Assembly (NCBI RefSeq): GCF_044324785.1
Contig: NZ_CP172127.1
Reading direction: 5' to 3' (one strand)
From: Escherichia coli
GTDB lineage: Bacteria; Pseudomonadota; Gammaproteobacteria; Enterobacterales; Enterobacteriaceae
Length of the DNA: 64,000 nucleotides
Shown here: one piece after another, positions 3,046 through 20,044 of the stretch
Position numbering within the stretch: position 1 is the stretch's first letter
Layout: each line of letters starts with the position of its first letter
The notes under the pieces: model-generated
Database searches by the model: none
Told to the model about the DNA's origin: nothing
What the model saw: only the letters and a program-made list of their open reading frames with translations
Translations under genes and position numbers: made by a program

Positions 3046-3612
3046 ATGTATACAGAATCAAATGTTAAGCTTTCCTGTAACGCCCTCTGGCAAAAGTGTG
3101 TCCTTGCAACTCTGTATCGGGCTGCAGCCACACATCCTGAAATTAAATTATTACAATTTAAATTAATACCAGGGCAGGGTATTAATAAGGCCATTCCCTC
3201 TCTGATGGCTGATTTTACTGGTGAACTGCATAGACTCATTTCTGAATATTTGCAGTGTAAGCGACGTAAAGAGCAATCTGTTGAGCCCACCCCTTTATAT
3301 TATCTCTGGAGTAGGGAAGCTGTGGCTAACGATACCACTCCTTATCTTATGGTGCTGCTACTTAATAACGATGTCTGGTGTAAGAGTCGTGAGGTGGTGG
3401 TTCTCAGAAATCTGATTGAGCAGGCGTGGGGAAAAGTATTGGGTGAAGATAACTCCATTACACATCTGGTTGTGTATCCTGAAGTGCTGTCGTTGGTATT
3501 TGATGCAGCTAACACATACAACGCTGAGCCTGCTGTACTGGAACAGACGGCCCGGGCTTACATTGAATCACATGGTACCATTGAACGTCATCTTGGGTGT
3601 AGTGACTTTTAA
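3046..3612 (+). CDS. Gp2/YagK-like family paralog with degenerate H-x-H region
   Basis: 188-aa ORF; PYLMVLLLNNDVWCKS aligns with HYHVILLLNKDTWCSP of the ORF at 25669. Confidence 0.45.
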   Translation: MYTESNVKLSCNALWQKCVLATLYRAAATHPEIKLLQFKLIPGQGINKAIPSLMADFTGELHRLISEYLQCKRRKEQSVEPTPLYYLWSREAVANDTTPYLMVLLLNNDVWCKSREVVVLRNLIEQAWGKVLGEDNSITHLVVYPEVLSLVFDAANTYNAEPAVLEQTARAYIESHGTIERHLGCSDF

Positions 3613-3724
3613 CGTCAGGTGATGCATAAGGGCCTTTCGCTGAGAGGCCCTGTTTACACAATTAAATAAATCGAGCCCGACCAACAATTTTGATGTTAAC
3701 AGCAGGATTATTGAGGGGCAATCA

Positions 3725-3830
3725 ATGTGTTCTTCGGTAGCGATTACGGTAGTGAACGGACCTGCTGTCTGAATGGCATCGATCCGCAAGCGTATCGGCG
3801 CCATATTCTGAGCGTACTACTGAAATGGCT
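3725..3830 (+). pseudogene. IS66-family transposase C-terminal remnant
   Basis: Translation FFGSDYGSER..CCLNGIDPQAYRRHILSVLLKW matches the C-terminus of the IS66 transposase at 57024-57383 (FFGSDHGGERGALLYGLIGTCRLNGIDPEAYLRHILSVLPEW) with a frame disruption; approximate bounds. Confidence 0.5.
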
Positions 3831-3957
3831 AATGGCAGTAAAGAGAGACTTTACGTATATTTGCATAAAGCAGGATTTTACGACTAGTCAACATTCTTTA
3901 TAATTCTTCAGGTTCAGAGTATCTGACATATAGGGTTATGTATTGGGGAGACATTTA

Positions 3958-4659
3958 ATGTTTGGCCATCTGTTACGATACTTTAGTTTCTGTAAAAAAG
4001 ATTTATTAGTATTTCATCCTGAATCTGATTACTCAGATAATTTACATAAAGCCTTCTCTTTTACAAAAAGGCTAGGATTTAATGAAGAATGGAATGGGGT
4101 CACAAAAAACAAAGAATATGATTATCAGGATGTATTCAGTCATGTCTGTCTGCAGTCTGGTGTGACAGACTTTTCCGCTTCAGCAGGACAATGCTTAAAG
4201 TGGAGTCATTATTTTCAGCCATATTTTGAGAATATCCTTGAATGTCGGGTATGGGTTACCGTTGGACAACTCTGGAAACAGGAACGATTTATTTACAATC
4301 CGTCAGTTGCGGATTTTCAGCGCTGGTCTGAAAAAGGGATTCAGCCTGAAGATTTTAGACATCACTCGGGGTTTAACTTTCATGCGTGGTTGACGACGGA
4401 AAATGGTGTGATTGTGGATGTTTCCTTTATGAGTACGTTATCGCGGCGATTACCTGAACACCTGAGTGAAGTCAGTGGAAGTGTGATTATTGGCACGCCA
4501 GAGACGGTTCTTCCTGAGTATAAATATGTTCCCATGATTGTCGGTCAGAGGATTGTTGAGAAAATAGAAAAACGCTCTTTCATTGGTTTTCTGGCGCACG
4601 ACGATATTGATTTATATACAGTACCTGCAATCTTGGTTCCGGTATGGAAAGAATGTTAA
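3958..4659 (+). CDS. Hypothetical protein, no recognisable family; orphan cargo gene
   Basis: ORF 3943-4659; likely ATG at 3958 preceded by GGGGAG; AT-rich upstream region; flanked by IS66 and IS21 remnants. Confidence 0.5.
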   Translation: MFGHLLRYFSFCKKDLLVFHPESDYSDNLHKAFSFTKRLGFNEEWNGVTKNKEYDYQDVFSHVCLQSGVTDFSASAGQCLKWSHYFQPYFENILECRVWVTVGQLWKQERFIYNPSVADFQRWSEKGIQPEDFRHHSGFNFHAWLTTENGVIVDVSFMSTLSRRLPEHLSEVSGSVIIGTPETVLPEYKYVPMIVGQRIVEKIEKRSFIGFLAHDDIDLYTVPAILVPVWKEC

Positions 4660-4978
4660 AGCACGGAATAACACTATGCACTTACCGCTTTCCGGAACTC
4701 AGCTTGTTACCTGAGCGGTCAACAGAGCAGTCTTTCAGTGTCTGCACTTGGTTGCCACTAAACCGGAGTCATTTATCAGAAGTATATGTTCATGGAAGGA
4801 TATTGTCAGCGCCAGTGATATAAGACGGTAATGAGGATAGCCACCCCGCATGGGTTTCCTCAACACTGGTCACTGTGACAAGCGCACCATGATCGTCTTT
4901 GTATCGCTGATTGACTTTCGATAATAGAACATCTTCTGACATAAATTTTAGTACGGTAACAATTAACTAAATTTTCAT

Positions 4979-5245
4979 GTGGTAGCACTGAATCAGGAGA
5001 CTGCGTTTCCTGATGTGTGCTTCTGCAGCCGTTACCGGATACAGACTTCGATACCAGTTACTTCGACATCCGCCATGTGTCCTGGGACCCGCTATAACGA
5101 AGTTGGAGGTAATCAGTACAGCGTTCCCGAAATGCTGTGTGGTCAGCCAGTCTCGATACGAATATCGCTGAACGATGAGTTGCGGATCTACAGTAATGAG
5201 AAACTGGTGGCCTCACATCGCCTCTGCTCAGTGTCGTCTGGCTAG
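4979..5245 (+). pseudogene. Possible IS21-family IstA C-terminal fragment
   Basis: Segment YSVPEMLCGQPVSIRISLNDELRIYSNEKLVASHRL resembles IstA C-terminal region; weak, by eye. Confidence 0.3.
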
Positions 5246-5389
5246 CAGATAGTACCGGAACCTCACGCCCCGCTCTGGCAGCAGATCAGTCAGGTGGAAC
5301 ATCGACCACTGAGTGCCTATGAGGAGCTGTTGTGATGCATGTGTCAACGACGGATGAAAGTGGCTCTTCCGCAACCTGGGTGGAGATTT

Positions 5390-6816
5390 TCATGCCAGTG
5401 GACTCATTACCCTCTGCCTGAGTAGTTCAAATCCTGCTCGACCATACATCTGGCGTTTCAGCATCTTCAGGCGATTTACATGACCTTCGACAACACCATT
5501 ACTCCAGTGACTACTGATTGCCTCACATATAGCTGCAGCATCAGCTTCCATCCCCGCCGCCACGCGCCGAAATTCTGCTGAACCGCTTTCGTGGACTCGA
5601 GTGAACCAACTGCTTAGCTGTGATTTATTTTGGGTTTTCAGAATACGGTAGAACTCGAGTGCCAGTTGCTGCGCTATTTTCAGCTCAGGTTCTTTTTCAC
5701 ACATCAGACTAATAAATCGGGAAGCATAATTTTCTTCATCCCTGGTTATTCTCCAGGGCATCAACCAGCGGCTTACCCGGGACACTGAAGGAAGTCTGAC
5801 GGCAGTAGTAACCGGTGGGTTCCAGCCTTTACGCCATTTGGCAACCGCATCCCTGACGATGGTTTCACTGCCTGTAAATCCCCGGGCCACCATTTCCCGC
5901 CATATCCGGCTGGCGTTATAATTACCACTTTCTCGTTGCTCTTTTAACCACTCCCTCCATGGGTCCAGAAGCCCTCGCTTTGGCGGTCGGGTTGACATTT
6001 CAGGGAATGTTCCTGAACGCACCCAGCGACTGACTGTCACACGCGACAGGCCTGTAATACGGGATATTTCCCTGAAACTACATCCCTTGTTATGCAGGGC
6101 CATAACCTCTGTCCAACGCTGATGCCGTTTTTTGCGGGTTTGTTGTTTTAGGCGTTCCGGACGACGGAGCGATGCTGCAGGCACAGATGGTTCTGGATCA
6201 GGTGATTTCTTTGGTGACAACTCACTGGCAACAAGACGTATCAGAGGTATATGTCTATACATCATTCGTTCAGGCGCATCGCCAATATTTTTTAGCAGAT
6301 GCCATCGATCGGCCACCTGTCTGGCCTGAGGTGCACCTTCACGTGCTGCTGTCGCATAGACTCCACTGCGATCACGCGAGACAATCTGTATTTCCGGATA
6401 TTTTCTGAACCAGGTCGCCAGCGTACGCTGATCACGGCCGGGAAGCAGGACGAGGGGACGGTGAGTATCAAGATTGACGATTAACGTACCGTAACGGTGG
6501 CCCCGATGCCACGCCCACTCATCAATACCGACATGAGGCGAGCCTGACTGTTTCGTCTCCGGGGTATTGATAACCCTGCGAAGGAGAGTATCAGCACTGC
6601 AACGGAGACCCACTGCCGTTGCTGCCCGTTTCCCGGCCTCACCTCCGGCGATTAATCCCAGTTGACGTTGTAAATTTTGTAACGCCTGTGAAGACTGTTG
6701 GTGTGAACCGGCGAAGGGAGCAAGCGACTCGGCAAAAATTTTACGTGAACAAGCCGGGTTACGGCAGTACCAGTGGCGGACAGAAAATACAAGCCATAGC
6801 GTATGTCCTGAGCAGG
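5390..6816 (-). pseudogene. ISL3-family transposase, N-terminus interrupted by IS2
   Basis: C-terminal SNGVVEGHVNRLKMLKRQMYGRAGFELLRQRV signature; RHWYCRNPAC zinc knuckle and VGIDEWAWHRGHRYGTLIV DDE region; first 13 codons of track ORF 5390-6853 are encoded by the IS2 right end. Confidence 0.6.
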
Positions 6817-6827
6817 TGGATTTGCCC

Positions 6828-7733
6828 CTATATTTCCAGACACCTGTTATCACTTAACCCATTACTGGCCTGCTGCCGCAGATATTCCCGTGGCGAGCGA
6901 TAACCCAGTGCACTATGCGGATGCCATTCGTTATAATGCTCGAACGCCTCTGCAAGGTTCTTTGCTGCCGTTAACCCGTCTGGTTTAGGCATGATACTGA
7001 TGTAGTCACGCTTTATCGTTTTCACGAAGCTCTCTGCTATGCCGTTACTCTCCGGACTCCGCACCGCCGTGTTCTTCGGTTCAAGCCCCAACATCCGGGC
7101 AAACTGCCGTGTTTCATTAGCCCGGTAGCATGAACCATTATCCGTCAGCCACTCTACTGGAGACGCCGGAAGCTCGTTGCCGAAGCGGCGTTCCACCGCT
7201 CCTGGCATGACGTCCTGTACTGTTTCACTGTCGAAGCCGCCCGTAGTGACTGCCCAGTGCAGTGCCTCACGGTCACAGCAGTCCAGCGCGAACGTGACTC
7301 GCAGTTTTTCTCCGTTATCACAGCGGAACTCGAACCCGTCAGAGCACCATCGTTGATTGCTTTCTTTCACGGCCACTTTGCCAGTATGTGCCCGTTTCGA
7401 TGGCGGTACAGCGGTTTTTCGCTCAAGCAACAGCGCATTCTGGCGCATGATCCGGTAAACACGTTTGGCATTGATCGCAGGCATACCATCAAGTTCGGCC
7501 TGTCTGCGAAGCAGCGCCCATACCCGACGATAACCATACGTGGGCAGCTCTCCGATAACATGGTGTATACGGAGAAGCACATCCGTATCATCTGAGTGAC
7601 GGCTGCGGCGACCATCTTTCCAGTCATCGGTTCGTCTGAGAATTACGTGCAACTGCGCACGCGACACCCGGAGACAACGGCTGACTAAGCTTACTCCCCA
7701 TCCCCGGGCAATAAGGGCGCGTGCGCTATCCAC
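6828..7733 (-). CDS. insD: IS2 transposase OrfB (InsD)
   Basis: 301-aa ORF with rve-type DDE integrase core; recognised as IS2 InsD from memory. Confidence 0.9.
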
Positions 7734-8056
7734 TTTTTTGCACGCCCGTATTCAACGGCTTCTTTAAGGAGTTCATTTTCCATCGTTTTTTTGCCGAGCA
7801 GGCGCTGGAGTTCTTTAATCTGCTTCATGGCAGCAGCAAGTTCAGAGGCAGGAACGACCTGCTCTCCTGCGGCCACAGCAGTAAGACTTCCCTCCTGGTA
7901 TTGCTTGCGCCAGAGAAATAACTGGCTGGCTGCCACACCGTGTTGCCGGGCAACAAGGGAGACCGTCATTCCCGGTTCAAAACTCTGCTGAACAATAGCG
8001 ATCTTTTCCTGTGTAGTACGCCGTCTGCGTTTCTCCGGTCCTAAGACATCAATCAT
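7691..8056 (-). CDS. insC: IS2 OrfA (InsC)
   Basis: Starts [27 protein letters not shown] protein overlapping orfB as in IS2. Confidence 0.85.
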
Positions 8057-8613
8057 CTGCTCTCCAATGACTAGTCTAAAAACTAGTATTAAGACTATCA
8101 CTTATTTAAGTGATATTGGTTGTCTGGAGATTCATGGGGCCAGTCTAATGTGTATCCGGGATGGATGTTTACCAGAACCTTCTCTGTTCCAGTGTGTGGA
8201 GTTTTACAGAAGAGGCGACTGTATGCAACTCTTGCCCCGTAACTGTCTTTATTCGTTTCTCCACACTCTCCGGACATTGTAAATTCCAGATGTGTGGCAG
8301 TGTGTTTTTCGTAAATCGTACACAATGCATTTTTACACGGAGTTCAGCCAGTCGTATCACTGAGAGTTTTTTTCTGATTTGTACCACTCATGCAGCAGTG
8401 ATAAGGAGATATTTTCTCTGTCGGGCCAGCAGGGGCGGTGCCACCTGTTTAGTTTTCTTATGTTTGGTAAAAGAGAGGCTAAAATATATACAACAGGCGT
8501 ATGTAATGATTCATATTGTTAATCATTAACCAGTAAGAATTAATGTAGTGGATCGGTAATTCAGGACACCTCGAAATCCTGTTAATGTTAAAACAGTGAA
8601 AATGGGGTGATGC

Positions 8614-8931
8614 ATGAGCAAAACTCGTCGGACTAAACGCACCTTTTCCCCGGAGTTCAGGCTCGAAGCTATCGAGCAAGTAGTTAAATACCAGCGCGAT
8701 GTCAGAGAAGTCGCGCTGGCACTTGAGCTCAATCCTGACCATTTGCGTAAATGGATACGGTTGTATAAGCTGGAACTTCAGGGTATTGAGCCCGCTGGTA
8801 ATGCCATACCCCTGAACAGCGAGAAATTCAGCAGCTTAAAAGCGCAGATAAAGCGCCTTGAGATGGAAAAAGAAATACTAAAGCAGGCTGCCGTGCTGAT
8901 GAGCGAAATCCCCGGCAAGCTGTCGCGCTAA
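8614..8931 (+). CDS. IS3-family transposase OrfA (HTH plus leucine zipper), element truncated downstream
   Basis: 105-aa ORF MSKTRRTKRTFSPEFRLEAIEQV...LEMEKEILKQAAVLM; only the first codons of an orfB follow before the adjoining IS-like copy at about 9062. Confidence 0.65.
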   Translation: MSKTRRTKRTFSPEFRLEAIEQVVKYQRDVREVALALELNPDHLRKWIRLYKLELQGIEPAGNAIPLNSEKFSSLKAQIKRLEMEKEILKQAAVLMSEIPGKLSR

Positions 8932-9061
8932 TCACACTGCTGAAAGCAAAGCGGCCAGTGCGGATTATTTGTCATTTATTCGGTGTTCACCGTAGCGTTT
9001 ATTACGCGCAGGTGAAGCGTCCTGTTAATGTATCAGCGCCAATGATATAAGACAGTAATTA

Positions 9062-10688
9062 GGATTCGGACGATTTCCTGGACTGCTTTATTATGCCAGC
9101 CCGCATTGTTGGCGGTACATTTCAGGGATGACTGCACCCAGCGAAAATTTTATACGCCGCTCGTTATACCATCTGATGTAAGCATCCACATGCCGCATGA
9201 ATTTTTCAGGCGTGATACCCAATCATTTACGCCCATAATATATTTCAGTTTTCAGTCTGCCGAAAAAGCCTTCGCATGCAGCATTATCAGGCGAGCATCC
9301 TTTACGGGACATTGAGCGAATAAGGCCTGCTGTATTCACTCTTTCCAGCCAGGCCAGCGATAATGCCCACCTCTGTCACTGTGTATCACCGGTCGTTCGC
9401 CAGCATTTAACGTTTCGACAGCGTTATCCAGCATAGTGTTGACCAGTTCAGCATCGGGGCGTGTACTGAGAGACCAGCTCACAACTTTTCTGTCGAAGCA
9501 GTCCACCACCGGTGATAGCCAGACTTTTCCTGCAGGAAGCTGGAACTCCGTGATATCTGTCAGCCATTTCTGATTAGGTTGCTCCGCCTTAAAATCTCTG
9601 GCGATAAGGTTATCCGGAGAAGGTCCGATTTCTCCGCAATATGAGCTGTAGCGGCGATGACGGTTACGGCTGACGACAAGCTGTTCCTCCACCATAAGTC
9701 TGCGTACAACCTTTTCTGATAGCCGATCCCCCTCATGCCTGAGCATCGCATGCAGGCGACGATAGCCATAACACTGGTAATTACTGTTAAATATATCTGT
9801 CAGCATCGTACGTATCGTGGCGTATTTATCACTGGCTTTCAGTGCAGCCCGGTGATAAAAATAACTGCTACGGGCAAGGCCCAGAACATGCAGTAATTCT
9901 GTCAGGGGATATGTTTATCTCAGGGCATCAGTAATCTTTGTTTTTTCTCTGTTGTTCAGGTGACTGATGCTGATGCCCGGGTCTTTTTTTATTATTTCCT
10001 CCGCTTTTTTCAGAATATCCAGTTCCATCTGCCGGCGGCGTATTTCCTGATTCAGTCGGGCGACTTCCTCCCGCAACGCATCGCGTTCTGCCTCCAGGGA
10101 AGGGGCGTTATGTTTACGCATAGTCTGGTAAGCACTGTTGCCGATAATTTCATCTTTCCATTTATACAATACCGCGCGACTGACACCAATACGCCTGGCG
10201 ATTTCACTGGCTGATCCTTGTCGTGTACAGAGTACCATGACAGCCTGACGTTTGACTTCTGGTTCAAAGGACGCAACCGGATTGGTCTTACTGGTAAATA
10301 CACGTCGTCTGTCGGGGGAACGTTCATTAACCCAGCGAGCGAGCATATCGGTACAGGGATAACCCAGAGTCCTGCTGGTAAACGCCAGGCAGCAGCCGTG
10401 GTTAAGATAATGTTCAACGGCAACCTGTTTTTGCTCATCGGAGTAACGGTGCTTATGACGAATGGATTCTTTTGATCCGCCACCTGCTTCCCATGAACGG
10501 ATCCAACGCCGCAGATTTCTTTTCGAAGGGTAGCCCAGTTCGCGTACGACGGGGCCAGCTTCTTACCATATTTGAAATAAAGCTCAATGGTGCGAATTTT
10601 TTGTTCTTCAGTAAACATGTTTCATCTCCTGAGAGTCCAGGAAATCGTCCGCATCCCCTAACGGTCAAAAATCGTGGCGTTGATACAG
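9062..10688 (-). mobile_element. DDE (rve) IS-like element, copy 1, decayed; about 50-bp terminal inverted repeats
   Basis: Left end TGTATCAACGCCACGATTTTTGACCG (reverse complement at 10688); right IR lacks about 35 terminal bp; transposase carries a 1-bp frameshift after MFTEEQKIRTIELYFKYGKKLA, a TAA where copy 2 has CAA (Gln), and further shifts near the 3' end. Confidence 0.65.
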
Positions 10689-10868
10689 GGGAAATCCGTA
10701 GTTTTTGATGCCAGCCATAACGTGTTTGACTATAAAGTATTACGAAAGGACTTTAATGAGCCCCTGGAATAATTCATTAAAGTAATTTACTTCGCTATCC
10801 TTTTCCCAGTTACTCACAAAGAAAAATATTCATAAAATAATTCCCGGGCTGGCAGCCCGGGATGATTA

Positions 10869-12131
10869 CTATTTTAATGGATTGTTAATCTTTGCATATT
10901 CAAACGGGCTGATACATTGTTCTCTGTTCGCACCCAGAAAATCTGCCCACCACTGTAGCATCAGTCGACGTTCTTCCAGATGTTCTGCTTTATGGATATA
11001 TGCAGCACGTACACCATTACGCTCCTGATGGCTCATCTGACGTTCCACAGCATCGCGGGACCACAAACCTGATTCAATCAATGCACTGCACGCCATCGCC
11101 CGGAATCCATGACCACAGACTTCCTGGGTTGTGTCATATCCCATCACCCTCAGGGCTTTATTTACAGTATTTTCACTGATCGGTTTACGCGGGTCATGTG
11201 CTCCCGTAAAGATCAGACCATTTTCACCAGCCCATGTCTGTAGTTCTGTCAGTATGGCTACAGCCTGTTTGCTGAGTGGCACAAGATGTGGTGTTCGCAT
11301 CTTGGAGCCCCGGTGTGAGTATTTTACGCCTGGCAGAGGTTCGCGTTCGGCTGGAATAGTCCACATGGCATTGTCAATATCAATTTCAGACCAGCGGGAA
11401 TATCTGAGTTCACTGGAACGAATAAAAACCAGTAAATTCAGCATAACTGCCAGTCGGGTGACAGGCTGACCTTTATAACCGTCAATACGCGACAGAAGTT
11501 CAGGCAGGCGTGAAAGATCCAGAGCAGGGCGATGCTGGCGTTTTACCGTGGTCAATGCACCAGCCATATCCAGAGCCGGGTTATATCTGATGATGCCAGA
11601 CTGTACGGCATAACGCATTACAGCAGATATTCTTTGCTGCAGACGACTGGCGATTTCATAAATTTGTTTTGCTTCTGCAGCACGAACAGGGATAAGCAGG
11701 TCCGGGGTATTGAGTGTTGTGATATCCCGGTTGCCGATAAAGGGGAAAACGTGTGTCTCGAGGCTTTTGATTACTTTATCGCTGTGTGATTGTGCCCATT
11801 GTTTATTACTGGCATGCCAGCGTCGTGCAATATGTTCAAAAGAGAGTTGTAAATCAGGGACTACTTTTTTAGCTCTTTTTTGTTCGCAAGGGTCAATCCC
11901 CTCTGAAATCAGTTTTCGGGCCTCATCCCGTTTTGTACGAGCTTCGGAGAGAGAAACTTCTGGATATACACCAAGTGCCAGAGTCTTCTCCTTACCCAGA
12001 ATACGATAACGGAGACGCCAGTAACGGGAACCATTAGGATGAACCAGCAGGAACATGCCAGCCCCGTCAGTGAGTTTATAAGCCTTGTCAGTGTGCTTTG
12101 CAGCCCGGATTTTTGCGTCAGTCAGTGCCAT
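10869..12131 (-). CDS. P4-type tyrosine integrase (CP4-like island integrase)
   Basis: 420-aa ORF; N-terminal LTDAKIRAAK..GMFLLVHPNGSRYWRLRYR arm-binding domain and C-terminal catalytic region (HGFRAM...RAAY). Confidence 0.9.
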   Translation of the reverse strand: MALTDAKIRAAKHTDKAYKLTDGAGMFLLVHPNGSRYWRLRYRILGKEKTLALGVYPEVSLSEARTKRDEARKLISEGIDPCEQKRAKKVVPDLQLSFEHIARRWHASNKQWAQSHSDKVIKSLETHVFPFIGNRDITTLNTPDLLIPVRAAEAKQIYEIASRLQQRISAVMRYAVQSGIIRYNPALDMAGALTTVKRQHRPALDLSRLPELLSRIDGYKGQPVTRLAVMLNLLVFIRSSELRYSRWSEIDIDNAMWTIPAEREPLPGVKYSHRGSKMRTPHLVPLSKQAVAILTELQTWAGENGLIFTGAHDPRKPISENTVNKALRVMGYDTTQEVCGHGFRAMACSALIESGLWSRDAVERQMSHQERNGVRAAYIHKAEHLEERRLMLQWWADFLGANREQCISPFEYAKINNPLK

Positions 12132-12295
12132 AGTTCAGCCTTCTGAATGCGTTAAAGAGGGTACAAATTCTGTCGAACTGGGGTATACCCGCAATTATAC
12201 CCACACAATGGGGTTGATGTGGGGGGAATCTGGTTGAGTTCGGTAGAATTGATTTGGAGGCAGAACGCTTAAATTGTGGCGTTCTGAAACGAAAA

Positions 12296-12317
12296 ACGGA
12301 CCTCCGTGGAGGTCCGT
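12296..12317 (-). terminator. Rho-independent terminator hairpin downstream of the tRNA-Phe 3'-end copy
   Basis: Perfect palindrome ACGGACCTCCGTGGAGGTCCGT followed on the minus strand by TTTTCGTTTC. Confidence 0.5.
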
Positions 12318-12328
12318 TGATATGAATT

Positions 12329-12347
12329 TGGTGCCCGGACTCGGAAT
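12329..12347 (-). repeat. Copy of tRNA-Phe 3' end (att core) without tRNA body
   Basis: Minus-strand ATTCCGAGTCCGGGCACCA equals the last 19 nt of E. coli tRNA-Phe; upstream sequence does not match the tRNA body. Confidence 0.65.
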
Positions 12348-12594
12348 GAAACTGGTTGTATAACAAGTTGTTTTATATTGATTGTTTTGTGTTTGTTATT
12401 TTTGAGGCCACCAATGAGGCCCCCATGTGCAATTCGAATTCTTTTGACGCTATAATCCCTCTTTCTTGTGGTTTGTTGTAATCATTTTGTCTGGTTCGAT
12501 ATGCTGAATCGCGGAATCGAAGTGACAACAAAATACAGAGATTTATAAAATACCTGGCTACCTGTGTTAGGGAGCGTTAACGCACAGATTTTGT

Positions 12595-12921
12595 TTATGG
12601 CTGCCAGAAATGATCTGATGGTTTGTCGTCTGGCTCTGCAAGTACCCTGTTGATATCCCGGGAACCATGAACGATACGTTCGATACGAACTTCAGTATCC
12701 AGTACCCTGAACAGCAGAAGGTAACGACCATACGAACAACCTCTGATCCCAGCCCCTAACTCGGGTCTTTCTCTGTAGAGTACTGGCGATTCGGCTATCA
12801 ACAGACATTGTTGGTAAAGCTCTTCGGTAAAACTGATTGCACGGACAGGATTATCCTGAGCGATCCAGTCACCTATAGCTTCAAGATCGTGTTCTGCTAA
12901 TGGTGAAACAGTCAGTTTCAT
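12595..12921 (-). CDS. parE: ParE-family type II toxin
   Basis: 108-aa ORF; ParE/RelE-like sequence; overlaps upstream antitoxin by ATGA. Confidence 0.75.
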   Translation of the reverse strand: MKLTVSPLAEHDLEAIGDWIAQDNPVRAISFTEELYQQCLLIAESPVLYRERPELGAGIRGCSYGRYLLLFRVLDTEVRIERIVHGSRDINRVLAEPDDKPSDHFWQP

Positions 12922-13181
12922 ATTGGCTGTTCACCTTCTGCCATCTTTTTGTATTTGTGCGTCAGTCGCCCGAATACCTCTTCAGCACTTTTACTTTCAC
13001 CGCTGTTGATGCCTGCGGTCACGGCGCTCTGGAGTGATTCAAGCTTTATCTGCTGTTCCCGTTCTTCCAGAGCACGAAGTCCGGCACGAATGACTTCACT
13101 TGTATTGTTGTACCGACCACTTTCTATTTGTTCGCGGATAAACGTTTCAAAGTAAGGACTGAGGGATACACTGGTAGGCAT
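12918..13181 (-). CDS. parD: ParD-family (RHH) antitoxin
   Basis: 87-aa ORF; RHH-type segment NTSEVIRAGLRALEEREQQ; overlapping stop/start with parE. Confidence 0.75.
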   Translation of the reverse strand: MPTSVSLSPYFETFIREQIESGRYNNTSEVIRAGLRALEEREQQIKLESLQSAVTAGINSGESKSAEEVFGRLTHKYKKMAEGEQPI

Positions 13182-13252
13182 GGTTATTTTCTCGCCGATT
13201 GATCACTATCAATTAATAATAGTTAATATTCGTGAATTGTAAAATACCTCTT

Positions 13253-14122
13253 TTATGCCTTGCTGCTTTTGTTCACTGTGCTTGCCAGGGCTTCCGGGTA
13301 GTGTCTGGCAATAATATCATTAAGCCTGTCAACCAGCTCTGGTTTCCTGAACGTGATGTGCGCGGAGCCCTTCTTAAAGTATCTGATGCTGAACATCTCA
13401 TCTTCATAGTCCTCTTTACCCTGAACAGACTGGATGTGATCATCCAGATGAATGGTGATGTTTTCCCGGTTGTCGGGGATCGGTTTGCCGCTGAACAGGT
13501 GTAGCATTCTTTCCAGATCGGCAAGTCGATCTGCCTGTGGGCCGTTGTTCAGATGAAACCCCCACCGGTCCCACCTCACCAGGTTGTTGACGATAATTTT
13601 ACTGCCAAATTTGCAGGGGCAATTGGTTTTGTAATTCCAGCTCAGTCCCCTGAAGACGTTGATCACCCCTCGCTCAAACACCTCATCCTTATTCTGGTGC
13701 AGTTGTTCAAATGTGCTCAGAATGTTCGCTTCGCAGATTTCCGGAAAATTATCGTACTCCAGTGACCGGTACCATGTATCACGGGCTTGTGCATCCATTA
13801 ATGACAGCATCCCTGAACGTTGCATCAGGTCACGCCAGAGTTCGCGATCGAGATTCCGGGTGATGGCTTTCATTGCGGTTTCCGGTTTCTCCATCAGCCA
13901 GCAACCGCAGCGAAAATCCTGTTTCATGGCCCAGTCCCGGGCGGTTTTACCTCCAATACTTTCTGTCATTGCTGATATTTCAGCCAGTTGCCGGATAAGT
14001 GTGTCGATTTGCAGCAGTGTACTCTTTCGTACAGCCAGAATGTGGCGGATACTGGTTGAGCAAATAACGTCCGTATGCCCGGTGACCACTTCCGGACGGG
14101 AGGCTGTGATATCTGACATCAT
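13253..14122 (-). CDS. Hypothetical protein (DUF4942-like, as often found next to cbtA/cbeA)
   Basis: 289-aa ORF; family name recalled from context, not verified. Confidence 0.4.
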   Translation of the reverse strand: MMSDITASRPEVVTGHTDVICSTSIRHILAVRKSTLLQIDTLIRQLAEISAMTESIGGKTARDWAMKQDFRCGCWLMEKPETAMKAITRNLDRELWRDLMQRSGMLSLMDAQARDTWYRSLEYDNFPEICEANILSTFEQLHQNKDEVFERGVINVFRGLSWNYKTNCPCKFGSKIIVNNLVRWDRWGFHLNNGPQADRLADLERMLHLFSGKPIPDNRENITIHLDDHIQSVQGKEDYEDEMFSIRYFKKGSAHITFRKPELVDRLNDIIARHYPEALASTVNKSSKA

Positions 14123-14203
14123 CGTTTTTCCTTTTGGTTTATAAACGAAAACGCCAGCTGTATTCAGGCTGGCGTCAGGGGAATGAAGTATGGTGAGTGA
14201 TAT

Positions 14204-14401
14204 TCACCGGTTCTGGTGCAGAAGCTGCAGTTGGCGCAGGGTACGGATATCTTCCCTGGCCTGTTCAATGCAGGGCAGCAGTGCTGTCGAATCCGTTTTA
14301 TCCTCATCGTTGTCAAAGATAATTTCCGATTCGCAGTCAATATTGTCCTGCAGCCACGCAATCAGAATATCCAGCGCTGTTTCCGTGGTTAATGATTTCA
14401 T
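14204..14401 (-). CDS. Small acidic hypothetical protein (DUF957-like)
   Basis: Likely start MKSLTTETALDILIAWLQDN inside track ORF 14204-14446. Confidence 0.4.
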   Translation of the reverse strand: MKSLTTETALDILIAWLQDNIDCESEIIFDNDEDKTDSTALLPCIEQAREDIRTLRQLQLLHQNR

Positions 14402-14412
14402 GTTGTTCCAGG

Positions 14413-14901
14413 TTACCAGTTGAAAGTGGGTAAACCCGGCAGGCATTCAGCGCTGGCATCCAGATGAATGAGACTGACGCCATAACGTCGGGTAAGTGTG
14501 ACAACCAGACGGCGGAACGTTTTTGACAGGCCCAGGCGCTTAAGCCGCAAAACCGGGTATGACCACGCATCGGTACGTAACAGATATCCGCTACCTGTGA
14601 AATGAATCCATTCTGATTCGCCGGTGTCATTCGTCTGATGTGACAGCGAGTACAACCAGGCATTGTCCGTTTCCGTGATATGTGCGGTACTGCAGCGTAT
14701 GCCGGTAAGGGCCGCAGATGGTGGCGTGCGCTCTGCTGATGCCCGGTCAGATTCATCAACAACACGAAGGGAGTAACCGTTATCGCAGACCACGTTAATC
14801 AGTTCAGCGAGAGTAACACCATCGACGTCAACGACAATGCGCCCCATGTTCAGTGCCTGCACGTTAATGCTGTCGGCTTCCAGCGTCAGGGCCAGTTTCA
14901 T
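14413..14901 (-). CDS. Hypothetical protein downstream of cbtA (YeeW-region protein)
   Basis: 162-aa ORF immediately 3' of the toxin gene; position-based call. Confidence 0.45.
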   Translation of the reverse strand: MKLALTLEADSINVQALNMGRIVVDVDGVTLAELINVVCDNGYSLRVVDESDRASAERTPPSAALTGIRCSTAHITETDNAWLYSLSHQTNDTGESEWIHFTGSGYLLRTDAWSYPVLRLKRLGLSKTFRRLVVTLTRRYGVSLIHLDASAECLPGLPTFNW

Positions 14902-15275
14902 TGTTTCGCCCCCGGATGTTTACCCAGGGTAATGTTATTTACCGTTCTGTAATTTTCGCGGGCCATCAGGCCGGTTGCCCGGCGTGCCCGGAGGATATCA
15001 ATACTGTTTATTAACTGAGAACGGGTACAGGCGCTGAATCCCGGCTGGTCGGTACGTACCAGCGCGTATTTTTCAACGAGAAAGTTCACCGCATCACACA
15101 GTGAAATGCCCGCTTCAATATGCTGCTCAATCACACGTTCATCAGCGAACGGTGTGTCATTCAGCGCGAGGCCGTAGTGCTGGTCCAGTAACCGGGTGAG
15201 CAGTGTCTGCCAGATGGTGACGGGAGACGGGCAGCACGATGCCTCCCGTACATGCGTGTCGGGTAATGTTTTCAT
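14898..15275 (-). CDS. cbtA: CbtA/YeeV-family type IV toxin
   Basis: Start MKTLPDTHVREASCCPSPVTIWQTLLTRLLDQHYGL...; strong resemblance to YeeV/YkfI/YpjF. Confidence 0.8.
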   Translation of the reverse strand: MKTLPDTHVREASCCPSPVTIWQTLLTRLLDQHYGLALNDTPFADERVIEQHIEAGISLCDAVNFLVEKYALVRTDQPGFSACTRSQLINSIDILRARRATGLMARENYRTVNNITLGKHPGAKQ

Positions 15276-15364
15276 AATGAAGATTTTCCTGATATGCAGA
15301 GATAAAAAATGGGACAGTGGCGTGGTGAAAGCACCAGGCCGGAGCAGAAGGTTATTCTGGAGAG

Positions 15365-15733
15365 TTACTTTTTCGTTTCGGGCGTCGGATAAACAGCCAT
15401 ATAAACGTAGCCACAACTGCCGAGGGTGTCGGCTTCGCAGGTCAGCCCTTTTGCATACAGTGTCACGGTATGCTGATGGCGGGGATTCAGTTCACCGCTG
15501 GTGAGCATGAGTTCCAGTTGTTTCATCAGCAGCGGAAAGGCCTGGTCCAGGTGGTACGAATCCGCGTCGCTGAACCGCCCTCTAATACAGGCGCGGTCGG
15601 CAAGGTAATGCAACCGGTTGCCTTCCTGTACCAGACGGGCACCAAAACAGGGCGTCACGGTGCAGGGCAGTCCCCACCAGGTGCGGTCGTTATTGTCGTC
15701 GGGAAGCGTTGTCCCGGGGAGTGTGTCTGACAC
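15365..15733 (-). CDS. cbeA: CbeA/YeeU-family antitoxin
   Basis: MSDTLPGTTLPDDNNDRTWWGLPCTVTPCFGARLVQEGNRLHYLADRA... matches YeeU/YfjZ/YafW. Confidence 0.85.
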   Translation of the reverse strand: MSDTLPGTTLPDDNNDRTWWGLPCTVTPCFGARLVQEGNRLHYLADRACIRGRFSDADSYHLDQAFPLLMKQLELMLTSGELNPRHQHTVTLYAKGLTCEADTLGSCGYVYMAVYPTPETKK

Positions 15734-15812
15734 GATAAAATCCTCACAGAAAATTGGTTAAGAATGGTCCGGTGGTGGCGATAATTCTGCTCTTCTGAAT
15801 GCCCTTCCAGAC

Positions 15813-16034
15813 TCAGTTCAGGGTGACGCTCATCAGCCGGACATACGGACCAAAACTGTCCTTCCGGCGTTCTGCAAACACAGCCAGCACACCGGGAATA
15901 TCCTGTACTTCACGGCCGGTATATGTATCCGTGCTACCGTGTCAGCGGTATTTACCGGTACAGAACGGAAAAAGACGGGATGCAGGATGCTGACGGTGAA
16001 TACGCATGGCTTCACCACGGGTGATGATTTTCAT
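15813..16034 (-). pseudogene. YeeT/YpjJ-like (DUF987) gene with in-frame TGA at codon 31
   Basis: MKIITRGEAMRIHRQHPASRLFPFCTGKYR*HGSTDTYTGREVQDIPGVLAVFAERRKDSFGPYVRLMSVTLN; TGA at 15942-15944 where homologs have Trp. Confidence 0.7.
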
Positions 16035-16120
16035 GAGAATAGTCCTCCTGAATGTGAAAGTAAGAAACAGCTGAGAAAGAGAAACTGAAGTGATATGAAG
16101 GTGATTGTGACGGTGACGGG

Positions 16121-16597
16121 TTAAAGCAGACCGTGTTCCGCAAAGGAGAAAACCTGGCTGCCACCGATTATCAGATGGTCCGGTACCCGGATATCCACCA
16201 GGGCCAGTGCCTGTACCAGACGCTCGGTGATAAGGCGGTCTGCCTTGCTGGGGATGACTTCACCGGACGGGTGATTGTGCGCCAGCACCACGGCAGCGGC
16301 ATTGTGGTACAGGGCGCGTTTAATCACCTCCCGGGGATGGACTTCTGTGCGGTTGATGGTGCCAGTGAAGAGGGTTTCACCGGTAATCAGCTGATTCTGG
16401 TTATTCAGATACAGCACCCGGAATTCTTCACGCTCCAGTCCCGCCATGTTCAGAATCAGCCATTCCCGTGCCGCATGCGTGGAGGTGAAGGCCACGCCGG
16501 GTTCATGAAGATGGCGGTCCAGGGCTTTCAGGGCCCGCTGAATGAGGCTGCGCTCGCCGGGTGTCATCTCTCCGGGCAGAAAGGAAAGCTGCTGCAT
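16121..16597 (-). CDS. RadC-like JAB-domain protein (YeeS/YfjY family)
   Basis: HNHPSGEVIPSKADRLITERL JAB/MPN motif; track ORF 16121-16612, start probably MQQLSF. Confidence 0.8.
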   Translation of the reverse strand: MQQLSFLPGEMTPGERSLIQRALKALDRHLHEPGVAFTSTHAAREWLILNMAGLEREEFRVLYLNNQNQLITGETLFTGTINRTEVHPREVIKRALYHNAAAVVLAHNHPSGEVIPSKADRLITERLVQALALVDIRVPDHLIIGGSQVFSFAEHGLL

Positions 16598-16612
16598 TGT
16601 CCCTGCCTCCAT

Positions 16613-17098
16613 TCAGTCGATGATGCGCATAATGGCGCTGCATTCCGGATGCTGCAGGGCATAATCCCGCAGCCGGTAATAATGAACCGTCATGGCATAA
16701 TTCTCTGTACGACAGGCGTGATGGCTGTACGCCATCAGACAGGCGGCAATGCCGGCGGCTTCCGGGCTCATTTCAGCGCGGTTACCGTTCATGACGTTAA
16801 ACAGCACCCATGTTTCGTCATCATCGTCATCCGGTTCAGGTGCCATAAATGCGCCACCGTTGTTCAGGGTGTACAGATTCCAGATGCCCCCGCAGTAGTC
16901 TTCGCACAGACGGTCCATCCAGCCGAAGACACGGGGCTCCAGGGTCACCCACTGTGGAATGAGGCCAAAATGCTGCGGCCAGAAGCTGATGCGCTGTTCA
17001 TCAGGGACGGGAGTGGCAACCAGTTGAGACTGGTTATTCCCTGATGCAGTAGTTACGGAAACAGAAGGTGTGGTGGAGCTATGCGAAAAGGTTGTCAT
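16613..17098 (-). CDS. Antirestriction protein (ArdB/KlcA-like, YfjX/YafX family)
   Basis: 161-aa ORF with conserved core FWPQHFGLIPQWVTLEPRVFGWMDRLCEDYCGGIWNLYTL. Confidence 0.75.
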   Translation of the reverse strand: MTTFSHSSTTPSVSVTTASGNNQSQLVATPVPDEQRISFWPQHFGLIPQWVTLEPRVFGWMDRLCEDYCGGIWNLYTLNNGGAFMAPEPDDDDDETWVLFNVMNGNRAEMSPEAAGIAACLMAYSHHACRTENYAMTVHYYRLRDYALQHPECSAIMRIID

Positions 17099-17189
17099 GA
17101 GATGATTCCTTATAAAAAGTAAATGAATGGAAGAATGCCTGGGGACTGGTACAGACGTGAGTCAGGGCTGCACTTTCAGGGAAACAGCA

Positions 17190-18008
17190 TCAGCGCATGC
17201 TCTCCAGCAGCGTTTCTGCCATCACCCACAACGCCCGGTTGAGCTTAATGTCGGTATCGATGCTGTGAATGGCCCGGGTATGGATACGTTTTCCTCTGGC
17301 ACTGCGACCGGAAATCCCGCCTTTCAGCATATTTTCCTGGATGGTCTGATAAGCACTCCACAGGTCCTTACCGTAATCCTCCCGGCGTCGTGGCGTCAGA
17401 ATGTCGGTAGTGGTGACGGGCTGATGTTCATCACCATAACGGTAAGTCAGCGCCGCCTGTGCCAGCGCCTGGCGTGCCGGTGGCGGCAGGACCAGCGACT
17501 GCATGGCATCACGCTTTTCCTCAATCCGGTCAAACACGCCCACCACTTCGTAAGCACCTTCAATCACCCTGTCCACCACGTTTCCCCGGTGGGGCACCCG
17601 GACTTCTCCCAGCGACTGACCGCAGACCAAGCCATTGGTGCAGATGGCACGAAAATATCCGGGTAACATCTGATAGCTGGATGAACCGTCATGGGAGTTG
17701 AGCAGAATAATTTCAGGCACATGCTGACCGGTTATCTGTCCGGCCCGCCGCAGACGCAGCATATGTTTGGTATATTCCCGGCGGCTCTGGTCGCGCACAC
17801 GGGTCTGGCAGGCGAAGAACGGCTGAAAGCCTTCCCGCTGCAGATTTTCCAGGACGGTGATGGTGGGAATGTACGCATACCGTTCACTGCGGGAGGTGTG
17901 CCGGTCTTCTCCAAAAATACTCGGGACGTGGTACATCAGTTCTTCGCGTGTCAGTGGGCGCTCCCGACGGATCTGATTTACATGACCAAAACGACTGGCT
18001 AATTGCAT
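17190..18008 (-). CDS. DUF932-family protein (YfjQ/YafZ-like)
   Basis: 272-aa ORF in the position between the regulator block and the antirestriction gene; family recalled by eye. Confidence 0.6.
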   Translation of the reverse strand: MQLASRFGHVNQIRRERPLTREELMYHVPSIFGEDRHTSRSERYAYIPTITVLENLQREGFQPFFACQTRVRDQSRREYTKHMLRLRRAGQITGQHVPEIILLNSHDGSSSYQMLPGYFRAICTNGLVCGQSLGEVRVPHRGNVVDRVIEGAYEVVGVFDRIEEKRDAMQSLVLPPPARQALAQAALTYRYGDEHQPVTTTDILTPRRREDYGKDLWSAYQTIQENMLKGGISGRSARGKRIHTRAIHSIDTDIKLNRALWVMAETLLESMR

Positions 18009-18097
18009 ACTTTGCTCCTTATGAATGAATTAGCGGTATAAACGAAAAGGCCGCGTCTCCCGGAGAAGACGCGGCCTGATGGATGAAATGAAGACGT

Positions 18098-18331
18098 TTA
18101 TTGCCTGAGAATTCCCTCACTGGCGAGATACGAATTTAGCTGTTTTCCGGCATCAGGTTCAAAATTCCAGCACCGCCAGCGTAGCTGCCCTTCGGCATTG
18201 CGGATAACCAGCCGGAAATGCGTTCCCTGGTCATCTTCAATAAGCACATTGCGGTAAGCTGTTGTGACGGCAACCGCCTGTTCGCGTGAGAAAGGGCCTT
18301 CGGGCAATAAAACAGGGTGGCAGTCCGACAT
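18098..18331 (-). CDS. Small DUF905-like protein (YkfF-like)
   Basis: 77-aa [31 protein letters not shown]...WNFE pattern. Confidence 0.45.
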
Positions 18332-18336
18332 ACCGG

Positions 18337-19014
18337 CTATTTTCCGATAAATTCAACGCTGGCGCCGGTGGCATTACCGTCAGCACCAACCGTGACGGTC
18401 ACTTTGTCGTACGCACGGTCTTCAGGATTGAATACTTCAAACTCAACCTTATTGCCTTTTACTTCGTAAGAGCCAAAATCAGCGGTTTCTGTTGTTTCCT
18501 CGTCATATTCCCGGGCGTATGCCTGCCGGGCAGCCTGCAGGACGGAATCTTTATTAATAGTGGTCGTCTGTTTCGGGGAAAAACCGGCAAGTGATGTGAC
18601 AAATTTCGGACAGACCTTCAGCATATCACCGCGGGTGAATTCCATTCGTACACCAAATGCCTGTAAAACGGACACATCACGCTCTGCTATGGAGTGAACG
18701 GCTTTTTTGACCATTTCCGGCGCCTGTCCGATTTCCACCTCAACAGCCCTGAATCCCGTCTGCTGATTACACATTTGTGATGTGGGGATCAGGTTACCGT
18801 TAATACTGATACGGCTGCCCAGGAGCGTCTGTACGCCATTCGGGCATCCCTGCATCAGGCCGGTAATACCAATCGTGCCATTTTTCAGCATTACCAGCGC
18901 CTGACCATCTTCCGTCATGGTCTGACACCAGCCGTTTTTGACAGCCCAGTTGCCGGCGGAGGCGGAGAATGATGCCACAGTGAACAGCAGGGGAAAAAGA
19001 GCTCTGGTATTCAT
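18337..19014 (-). CDS. Secreted protein or lipoprotein, YafY/YfjS-like
   Basis: Start [20 protein letters not shown] is a signal peptide; track ORF 18337-19119. Confidence 0.5.
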
Positions 19015-19161
19015 GACTGACCTCTGAAATGAACGTACGGTGTTATTGATAATGATGGAAGGTATGCAGTGACTGTTCAGGGAATGACGTAGCCGTATAT
19101 TTAGTTTTCTGTTCAACATATTGTCTCCATACCTGTCGGGACGGCTTTGGCAGGCCGGCGA

Positions 19162-19842
19162 TCACAGGTTAAAGGTGTTGATAAGTTTATGGATGAAAGA
19201 GAAATGTGGCAGGGCGGAGATAAAACGCTCTTCAGCGACCAGACTGTGGATGTGGCCTCTCCGTTCAAACCGTTCTGATGTCAGGCTGACTGATTTGATA
19301 TCTGCCAGAGGAAAGACCTGCAGTTTTCCCTTCTGTAACGCGATCAGATACCAGCTACCGCTGTAATAAATGAGCCGGCAGGGCTCCAGTGACGGATACC
19401 ATCGCTCAGTCATCAGAGAGATGTGGATACACTGTCTTATTGCCAGGATGAGTTGCGAGAAACACTCGGGGAACGTTGCAGTGATATCCGGCGCCGGTAG
19501 CCAGATAAGGCAGGGAGAGGGCTCCTGGTTGTCGGTAAGACAGGTTATCAGTCGTCCGTTCCGGAGCGGAAGTATCCGTGCGATCCCGGTATTCTGTATA
19601 AAAGAAAGCATTTCAGGGATCGCACCCGGGCTGCTCTGTCGTCTGAGGCTGTACCTGCCATTTCTGTACTCTAAATCCAGGTGAACCAGACGCTGATGAA
19701 AATCGCGCTGTAAAGTACGTTCTGTAACGCCAAATTCATCTGACAGTGTTTTTAGTGACAGAGATTCTCCGGCCATCAGTCGGCTGATAATGAGTGATAA
19801 GCGAACCGCCAGGCGATCATGCCGGGAACGATTATCAGACAT
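19162..19842 (-). CDS. YfjR-like transcriptional regulator (HTH plus WYL-like)
   Basis: 226-aa ORF; N-terminal HTH LSLKTLSDEFGVTERTLQRDF. Confidence 0.6.
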   Translation of the reverse strand: MSDNRSRHDRLAVRLSLIISRLMAGESLSLKTLSDEFGVTERTLQRDFHQRLVHLDLEYRNGRYSLRRQSSPGAIPEMLSFIQNTGIARILPLRNGRLITCLTDNQEPSPCLIWLPAPDITATFPECFSQLILAIRQCIHISLMTERWYPSLEPCRLIYYSGSWYLIALQKGKLQVFPLADIKSVSLTSERFERRGHIHSLVAEERFISALPHFSFIHKLINTFNL

Positions 19843-20044
19843 AGATGTGCACTCCGTAAGAAAACATCTTTTATTTCATGATGTTATTATGCATCATGAT
19901 GTTGAAAGGATGTGTCGCATCCGGATAATCAGGAATAAAATGCAGCAGAAAAAATATTCTTTTAATTATCTGATTTTTAAGCATGATTTCATAAAAAGAA
20001 GAATGCTCGTTAATGCAGCGACACATCCTGTCGGCGTGAGTGTG

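Follow-up and report, generated by a model that had tools for sequence, protein, structure and literature searches.

Two well-known toxin–antitoxin pairs at the tRNA-Phe end of an Escherichia coli genomic island

Toxin–antitoxin (TA) pairs of the CbtA type located near the att sites of P4-like elements have already been described (PMC5371832). The mechanisms of CbtA and CbeA come from the K-12 proteins, in which residue F65 of CbtA serves as the FtsZ contact (PMC5624674), and the cbeA–cbtA spacer of K-12 is likewise documented (PMC5371832). In the toxins YkfI and YpjF, residue 15 is naturally a cysteine; both proteins are toxic, and MreB binding is retained in YpjF (PMC5624674). In E. coli, DUF5983 has been reported to recur as a partner downstream of CbtA (PMC10790755). 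As for the ParE family, its targets have been covered previously, gyrase inhibition is not shared by all ParE proteins, and the ParESO/CopASO pair of the P4-like prophage CP4So provides a precedent for a stabilizing role (PMC8706911).

In the present work, a stretch of E. coli DNA of 64,000 nucleotides (hereinafter, the window) was analyzed, and a ParDE pair and a CbtA/CbeA pair were found at the tRNA-Phe end of a genomic island. The region under study lies on the minus strand, its limits coincide with the parE stop (12595) and the cbeA start (15733), and all seven genes from parE to cbeA are intact. These TA pairs are real but ordinary. Both families have already been characterized, and the arrangement is not new: hundreds of E. 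coli genomes carry it with annotation. Its importance beyond correct annotation is slight.

Toxin–antitoxin pairs and the genes between them

The parE gene (12595–12921, minus strand) encodes a type II toxin of 108 aa, which matched the PF05016 family with a score of 65.3 bits (cutoff 23; E-value 7.9e-18). All six of its matches in the PDB were ParE toxins or plasmid-stabilization ParE proteins, with the best match to 6x0a (2.8e-13) and others to 7ycs, 3kxe and 5ceg, and its score against the RelE/StbE NCBIfam model (24.3) was below the cutoff of 27.9. The same product, WP_000779483.1, is annotated at homologous loci in strains VTB96959v, 1223 and MS8345, and the translation from the window is identical to the copy of strain 1223. 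The parD gene (13181–12918 as read, minus strand) precedes parE and encodes an antitoxin of 87 aa of the ribbon-helix-helix ParD family. It was recognized by PF03693 (62.9 bits, cutoff 21; 3.9e-17) and TIGR02606 (96.9 bits, cutoff 46.2), and residues 3–64 aligned to the ParD antitoxin structures 7b22, 3kxe_C and 8c24. The parD stop and the parE start overlap in ATGA.

A consensus scan of the 71-nt gap upstream of parD revealed a promoter-like site, TTTACA-16 nt-TATTAT (13216–13243, minus strand), which matches the consensus at 10 of 12 positions; this is weak evidence, and across the region promoter-like sites were no more frequent than in shuffled sequences. Just downstream of this site there is an imperfect palindrome, TTGATAGTGATCAA, which, judging by its sequence and position, could possibly be an operator for ParD. 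A search with a repeat tool upstream of parD, cbtA and cbeA returned no inverted-repeat operators, including at the palindrome. By homology with characterized proteins, ParE most likely poisons DNA gyrase, and ParD would neutralize it by direct binding, as in type II systems, and would repress its own operon via the ribbon-helix-helix domain.

The second pair comprises cbeA (15365–15733, minus strand; 122 aa, GTG start) and, directly downstream, cbtA (14898–15275, minus strand; 125 aa). CbeA matched PF06154 with 183 bits (cutoff 27; 1.8e-54) and is 91% identical to CbeA of K-12 (111 of 122 residues), and a GAGGA ribosome-binding site is located 8 nt before its GTG codon. CbtA matched PF06755 with 208 bits (cutoff 25; 3e-62), with 87% identity to the K-12 toxin (108 of 124 residues). 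The spacer between the two genes is 89 nt, compared with 88 nt in K-12. An alternative reading of cbtA as an ORF of 172 aa starting at 15416 was rejected, and the ATG at 15275 was taken as the true start. In the encoded toxin, F65 is kept, and residue 15 is a cysteine, so that the MreB contact R15 of K-12 is absent; this substitution is not disqualifying, since YkfI and YpjF, which have the same residue, are toxic. By analogy with the K-12 proteins, CbtA would be expected to block cell division and elongation through binding to FtsZ and MreB, and CbeA, as a type IV antitoxin, would counteract it not through contact with the toxin but by bundling FtsZ/MreB filaments. Thus, the family models, the identity to the K-12 proteins and the PDB relatives bear out the earlier note, which had assigned one pair to ParDE and the other to CbtA/CbeA.

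The genes between the pairs had been described as three small unassigned genes, which proved inaccurate: all three belong to conserved domain families. The gene for DUF5983 (14413–14901, minus strand; 162 aa, PF25638 and PF19419) is the full-length form of K-12 yeeW, and its product is 67% identical to the 64-aa YeeW protein of K-12. Its start overlaps the cbtA stop in ATGA, and for this reason the two genes are probably co-transcribed. The adjacent DUF957 gene (14204–14401, minus strand; 65 aa) gave no Pfam match in the current library; the homologous ORF is annotated as DUF957 in E. coli with a near-identical translation, and it is syntenic across genera. The DUF4942 gene (13253–14122, minus strand; 289 aa, PF13708, 1.1e-67) closes the backbone of this family of islands. 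The only functional lead for its product is a match to the N-terminal part of PHROG 6263, named 'DNA methyltransferase'. PDB sequence searches with the DUF4942 and DUF5983 proteins gave no match. AlphaFold 2 models of these two proteins were weak (pLDDT 58.9 and 67.1, respectively), and Foldseek found nothing in the PDB at E ≤ 0.001. The neighboring yeeT gene contains a nonsense codon and is a pseudogene.

The att site and the island junction

The sequence ATTCCGAGTCCGGGCACCA, found at 12347–12329 on the minus strand, represents the last 19 nt of tRNA-Phe (pheU/pheV). The site was located through an exact 18-mer match, and no match to the tRNA-Phe 3' end was obtained in any of 100 shuffles. 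The parE stop is 248 nt inside this att copy, and the island ends with a non-coding terminal segment of about 170 nt (12348–12519). On the other side of the att site, a stretch of about 115 nt is almost identical to the downstream flank of pheU in K-12, including the terminator hairpin, and the homology to E. coli TUM9803 and other strains ends exactly at 12350. A partial tRNA 3' end and a homology break, the features of the end junction of a tRNA-integrated P4/CP4-like island, are thus both present, and the att site at 12329–12347 is the end of the island carrying the TA pairs. The earlier note had placed the pairs just inside an att repeat. Their position about 250 nt inside the tRNA-Phe att site agrees with this; the repeat does not, as this is the sole att copy in the window.

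Within the 64-kb window, neither a second att copy nor any tRNA gene was found; the matching full tRNA gene and the cognate integrase at the other end of the island are both outside it. Toward its far end, the window is colinear with a selC island, whose integrase and tRNA-Sec gene are expected beyond the window end, and the island appears to be composite, with a selC-like far part. A scan of positions 10000–20000 against Rfam revealed no RNA family.

Two other candidate features of the island were considered. Beyond the pheU flank, the junction is adjoined by a P4-type integrase gene (10869–12131), which was rejected as the integrase of the TA-carrying island because of how the att site is oriented, the pheU flank and the loss of homology at 12350. 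It belongs to a second, tandem island and is the counterpart of the yjdQ pseudogene position in K-12. An exact direct repeat of 25 nt (10634–10658 and 60747–60771, 50 kb apart) was also rejected as the island att site; when read directly, the two copies proved to be ends of two oppositely oriented IS3-family elements.

Backbone genes and the terminal cassette

A comparison of related islands showed a backbone with the order antirestriction gene, radC, yeeT, cbeA, cbtA, DUF5983, DUF957 and DUF4942. The same block was found upstream of DUF4942 in 12 loci of Escherichia albertii, Mixta, Yersinia, Hafnia, Citrobacter, Edwardsiella, Lelliottia and others, and in seven of them DUF4942 is located 100–250 nt from a tRNA gene. 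ParDE was found downstream of DUF4942 in none of 30 loci from other species. The GC content of ParDE is 44.3% versus 51.9% for the backbone. The homologous pheU island of strain GPEC172 is otherwise similar but has no ParDE, and in islands at other tRNA genes the slot is empty. In ST131, the same slot, with the same flanking 170 nt, contains AbiEi/AbiEii. The closest relatives of ParDE outside E. coli are encoded by Salmonella and Pantoea plasmids (72–76% nucleotide identity). These data indicate that CbtA/CbeA is part of a backbone block conserved across Enterobacterales, and that ParDE is a separately acquired, lower-GC, swappable terminal cassette that has a promoter-like site of its own and lies between the last backbone gene and the att site.

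The two pairs are therefore independent operons and not a coordinated stack. The description of stacked modules holds to the extent that both pairs are intact, belong to different TA types and are at most 3.1 kb apart; a backbone component and a swappable cassette do not amount to a joint unit. The pairs would lie side by side because the island end is where cargo can be accepted, not because they form a designed two-part system.

The full stack of 3.4 kb was found, with annotation, in 455 of 5426 complete E. coli genomes (~8%). ParDE was present in 471 E. coli genomes, 455 of which have the whole stack, and AbiEi/AbiEii occupied the same slot in 653 genomes. According to the alignment, the terminal segment of about 170 nt is common to the ParDE-bearing and AbiE-bearing island ends; it was detected in 1114–1117 E. 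coli genomes, which is close to the total of 471 ParDE and 653 AbiE carriers. The ParDE alleles are 97–100% identical, and the counts probably reflect one acquisition in related genomes, so they are no proof of selection for stacking. In the phage collection, neither TA module was present, with the exception of one record of a 3.2-kb fragment.

Possible roles and comparison with known systems

Taken together, the locus is best read as two independent intact TA operons at the att-proximal end of a tRNA-Phe (pheU-type) CP4/P4-like island, whose likeliest effect would be addiction, that is, retention of the island; we assign this reading a probability of roughly 0.55. After excision, the longer-lived toxins would poison cells that had lost the island, and this would bias the population toward island retention. 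If the island does not excise, its stabilization matters little.

The same features can be explained if both pairs are selfish hitchhikers that bring no benefit to the island or the host and persist at the att side because they are hard to delete and this region tolerates insertions. We regard this as doubtful, though deserving real weight. It agrees with the persistence of most DUF4942-terminated islands without any cassette, with the near-identity of the ParDE alleles, as expected after one recent acquisition spread by descent, with the plasmid-borne relatives, which suggest that ParDE began as a plasmid addiction module, and with regional decay, of which the yeeT pseudogene next door is a sign. 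Nevertheless, no reading frame of the pairs is disrupted, and distant strains share an identical ParE protein; moreover, this explanation is hard to separate from addiction because addiction is itself a selfish mechanism. One or both modules could also be inactive remnants, with a disabled toxin or silent genes, which seems very improbable. The R15C substitution weakens MreB binding in K-12 CbtA (PMC5624674), CbtA of the window has a cysteine at this position, and the yeeT nonsense codon shows that decay is close by. On the other hand, each of the four frames is complete and has a plausible start, CbtA retains F65, YkfI and YpjF are toxic with Cys15 (PMC5624674) and the family scores are far above the cutoffs.

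It is unlikely, in our estimation, that the terminal cassette (ParDE or AbiE), and possibly CbtA/CbeA, acts mainly in anti-phage abortive infection, with the island end as a small defense slot. Under such a scenario, infection would disturb the antitoxin, and the freed toxin would kill or arrest the cell before phage release. The support for it is circumstantial and comes from the alternative cassette: the slot with identical flanks holds AbiEi/AbiEii in the 653 genomes mentioned above, and AbiE is a characterized abortive-infection TA system (PMC3985639). In addition, other DUF4942-terminated islands carry an OmpA-like three-gene set, a WYL-domain protein or an SPFH pair downstream. Against this, ParDE, CbtA/CbeA and the three DUF proteins matched none of 5027 PADLOC models (a search of PADLOC-DB v2 with the 10 proteins encoded in 12595–18008 gave no family at E ≤ 0.01), and a literature search found no phage-defense report for this ParDE or CbtA/CbeA. 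The AbiEii gene is frameshifted in the ST131 example, and a slot with just two alleles in E. coli differs from the highly diverse known defense hotspots.

A broader proposal, which we consider quite improbable, is that the tRNA-Phe island end is a two-state site with interchangeable ParDE and AbiE, where ParDE would be a guard triggered by infection or excision, and that cbeA-cbtA-DUF5983-DUF957-DUF4942 is perhaps one multi-gene system. Such a guard would be a new role for ParDE in E. coli. The occurrence of ParDE, AbiE or an empty slot provides a natural contrast, which can be used for testing stabilization, the preferred reading, against phage defense.

Among the known systems, AbiEi/AbiEii of the pheV island (ST131, Nissle and others) resembles ParDE as a two-gene TA system in the slot between DUF4942 and the tRNA-Phe att site, with the flank of ~170 nt. 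Their proteins are unrelated (AbiE has a nucleotidyltransferase toxin and a DUF6088 antitoxin), the AbiE cassette is 1.4 kb versus 0.8 kb and AbiE is a known abortive-infection system. ParESO/CopASO of CP4So in Shewanella oneidensis is also a ParE-family pair on a P4-like element and was reported to maintain the element after excision (PMC8706911); its antitoxin is named CopA, not ParD, the genus is different and the two pairs are likened by description. Caulobacter ParDE1 (3KXE), Mesorhizobium ParDE3 (6X0A), Vibrio ParD2 (7B22/7R5A) and RK2 ParDE belong to the same ParE and ParD families and share the overlapping operon with the antitoxin first. The pair of the window, however, is only distantly similar to them (E-values from 1e-13 to 1e-3) and is located on a chromosomal island.

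The CbtA/CbeA (YeeV/YeeU) pair of CP4-44 in K-12 is organized like that of the window: the antitoxin gene comes first, the spacer is 88–89 nt, yeeW/DUF5983 overlaps the toxin stop, radC (yeeS) and yeeT are upstream and the pair is near the att end of a P4-like element (PMC5371832). The loci differ in the length of the DUF5983 protein (162 aa versus the truncated 64-aa YeeW of K-12), in toxin residue 15 (Cys versus Arg) and in the nonsense codon in yeeT of the window. DUF957, DUF4942 and ParDE follow in the window, and none of them is annotated downstream of yeeW in CP4-44. YkfI/YafW (CP4-6) and YpjF/YfjZ (CP4-57) are also of the CbtA and CbeA families, have Cys15 and adjoin P4-like att sites (PMC5624674, PMC5371832). 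In these two systems the spacer is 20 nt and the toxins are 58–62% identical to CbtA (PMC5624674, PMC5371832), whereas the pair of the window is of the CP4-44 type.

Gene content of the interval and its toxin–antitoxin proteins

The interval 12595–15733 contains seven genes, all on the minus strand. Gene calling returned exactly the limits given in the earlier note, and its identification of a type II ParDE pair and a type IV CbtA/CbeA pair was confirmed by Pfam and NCBIfam matches. The genes encode the ParE toxin (12595–12921; PF05016, 65.3 bits), the ParD antitoxin (12918–13181; PF03693; TIGR02606, 96.9 bits against a cutoff of 46.2), a 289-aa DUF4942 protein (13253–14122; Pfam/NCBIfam), a 65-aa protein (14204–14401) whose near-identical E. 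coli homolog is annotated as DUF957, a DUF5983 protein (14413–14901; Pfam/NCBIfam), the CbtA toxin (125 aa; PF06755, 208 bits) and the CbeA antitoxin (15365–15733; PF06154, 183 bits). The start of cbtA was placed at the ATG at 15275 by the Pfam match and alignment with K-12, and a longer ORF from 15416 was rejected. ATGA overlaps join the parD stop to the parE start and the cbtA stop to the DUF5983 start. A repeat search revealed no clear operator repeats upstream of parD, cbtA or cbeA, and an Rfam scan of 10000–20000 returned nothing.

Sequence-based membership tests assigned all four toxin–antitoxin proteins to their families. The closest solved structures to ParE were ParE toxins only (6x0a, 2.8e-13, then 7ycs, 3kxe and 5ceg), and its score with the RelE/StbE model was under the cutoff; the ribbon-helix-helix region of ParD aligned with the ParD structures 7b22, 3kxe_C and 8c24. 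CbtA and CbeA share 87% and 91% identity with their K-12 counterparts, and the cbeA–cbtA spacer is 89 nt compared with 88 nt in K-12 (PMC5371832). CbtA retains F65, an FtsZ-contact residue. Its residue 15 is Cys, whereas that of K-12 CbtA is Arg; Cys15 also occurs in YkfI and YpjF, both toxic nonetheless (PMC5624674). In addition, DUF5983 is full-length here, while K-12 yeeW is truncated.

Judging by family, DNA gyrase is most likely the target that ParE poisons, although this does not hold for every ParE member (PMC8706911), and ParD would neutralise ParE by binding it and would repress its own operon via the ribbon-helix-helix domain. CbtA would block division and elongation by binding independently to FtsZ and to MreB, and CbeA would protect by bundling FtsZ/MreB filaments, not by toxin binding (PMC5624674).

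Between cbeA and radC lies a yeeT/DUF987 homolog (15813–16034, minus strand), which is a pseudogene in the window: codon 31 (15942–15944) is changed from TGG to TGA. K-12 and strain VTB96959v carry intact homologs.

Island junction and flanking elements

No tRNA genes were found in the 64-kb window. The last 19 nt of tRNA-Phe, which mark the att, are present once, at 12347–12329 on the minus strand; shuffled sequences gave zero matches to the tRNA-Phe 3'-end query. Leftwards of the att, about 115 nt match the downstream flank of K-12 pheU almost exactly, terminator hairpin included. Position 12347/12348 is the true island junction, because in genomes 99.7–100% identical over 1–12350 the homology ends exactly at 12350. 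The ParE stop is located 248 nt from the junction, on the island side.

Immediately outside the junction, the native pheU flank (12215–12328) precedes an intact 420-aa P4-type integrase (10869–12131, minus strand), whose gene stands first in a second tandem island, riddled with IS elements, and occupies the position of the yjdQ pseudogene in K-12. In strain TUM9803, by contrast, this integrase lies directly next to an SPI-7-type integrative element. A 25-nt exact direct repeat (10634–10658 and 60747–60771, 50,113 nt apart) was rejected as an att, its copies being the ends of two IS3-family elements. These elements, in opposite orientation, bracket most of the island, and the whole segment could be inverted or deleted through them.

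The far end of the island falls beyond the window. The region 29104–64000 is colinear with the selC (tRNA-Sec) island of E. coli TUM9754, with 97.7–99.99% identity over these right-hand 35 kb, and the integrase and tRNA-Sec of that island would sit about 4 kb further on. Since the left end carries a pheU att and the right part matches a selC island, sequence comparison suggests that the island is probably composite or recombinant. A third, degenerate toxin–antitoxin remnant is present at 50718–50968 (plus strand), where a PemK/MazF-family toxin frame is interrupted by a stop codon, leaving ORFs of 44 and 35 aa; the annotation of TUM9754 lists the intact part as a MazF-family toxin.

Conserved backbone and exchangeable cassette

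A search for DUF4942 relatives in one genome per species yielded 30 loci. The order antirestriction, RadC, CbeA, CbtA, DUF5983, DUF957, DUF4942 was kept in 12 of them (Escherichia albertii, Mixta, Yersinia, Hafnia, Citrobacter, Edwardsiella, Lelliottia, Tenebrionibacter and others), and five further loci had variant arrangements. DUF4942 is followed by a tRNA gene after 100–250 nt in seven loci, which marks it as the terminal backbone gene; it is also last, without extra cargo, in the E. coli serX and selC islands. In Serratia and Yersinia frederiksenii (L014 4276–5885, L015 4276–5885, L027 4836–5868), DUF4942 is preceded by DUF5983, CbtA and CbeA in that order, with the toxin before the antitoxin, the reverse of E. 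coli, and without DUF957.

DUF4942 matches positions 82–291 of a PHROG family of 548 residues that bears the name 'DNA methyltransferase', its gene shares a 200-nt stretch with two Escherichia podophages, and the protein may correspond to an accessory domain of phage methyltransferases. Fold searches with low-confidence predicted models of DUF4942 and DUF5983 gave no matches, and neither protein had a hit in PDB sequence searches.

By these comparisons ParDE (12520 to about 13295) is an added cassette, because it is absent from all 30 DUF4942 loci, from the serX and selC islands and from the pheU island of strain GPEC172, which is otherwise similar and has its att about 115 nt from DUF4942. 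The GC content of the cassette is 44.3% compared with 51.9% in the backbone, and the cassette has a promoter-like site of its own upstream of parD. Outside E. coli, the sequences most closely related to the cassette lie on plasmids of Salmonella and Pantoea (72–76% nucleotide identity).

In ST131 and many other strains, an AbiEi/AbiEii pair fills the slot held here by ParDE, between the same terminal segment of about 170 nt and DUF4942, whose last ~14 codons differ between the two versions. This two-state slot, from DUF4942 to the tRNA-Phe att, spans 12348–13295 in the window (ParDE) and 5001–6596 in comparison locus L006. Among 5426 complete E. coli genomes, the ParDE cassette was found in 471, the AbiE cassette in 653, the shared terminal segment in 1114–1117 and the whole 3.4-kb ParDE-to-CbeA stack in 455. 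Given the relatedness of these genomes and an allele identity of 97–100%, the counts show a common and inherited arrangement and are not evidence of repeated stacking. Varied cargo was also observed downstream of DUF4942 in other genera (L017 3268–6114, L036 3229–6125, L018 7609–8508), namely a coiled-coil membrane protein, an OmpA-domain protein and an unknown protein in Hafnia, two SPFH/Band-7 proteins in Citrobacter and a WYL-domain protein in Lelliottia, which may be defence-like modules.

Possible role of the pairs and comparison with known systems

Retention of the island by addiction is the favoured role of the two pairs. In the P4-like prophage CP4So, a ParE-family pair was reported to maintain the element once it has excised (PMC8706911), and the typical location of CbtA-type pairs is near att sites of P4-like elements (PMC5371832). 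A role in phage defence would fit the AbiE allele in the same slot; however, no protein of the locus matched any PADLOC model, and both modules were missing from the phage collection. The pairs could also be purely selfish hitchhikers, which on sequence alone would be indistinguishable from addiction.

The exact proteins and their arrangement have already been annotated in RefSeq genomes. Only the slot with two alleles, ParDE or AbiE, at tRNA-Phe island ends is mildly new.
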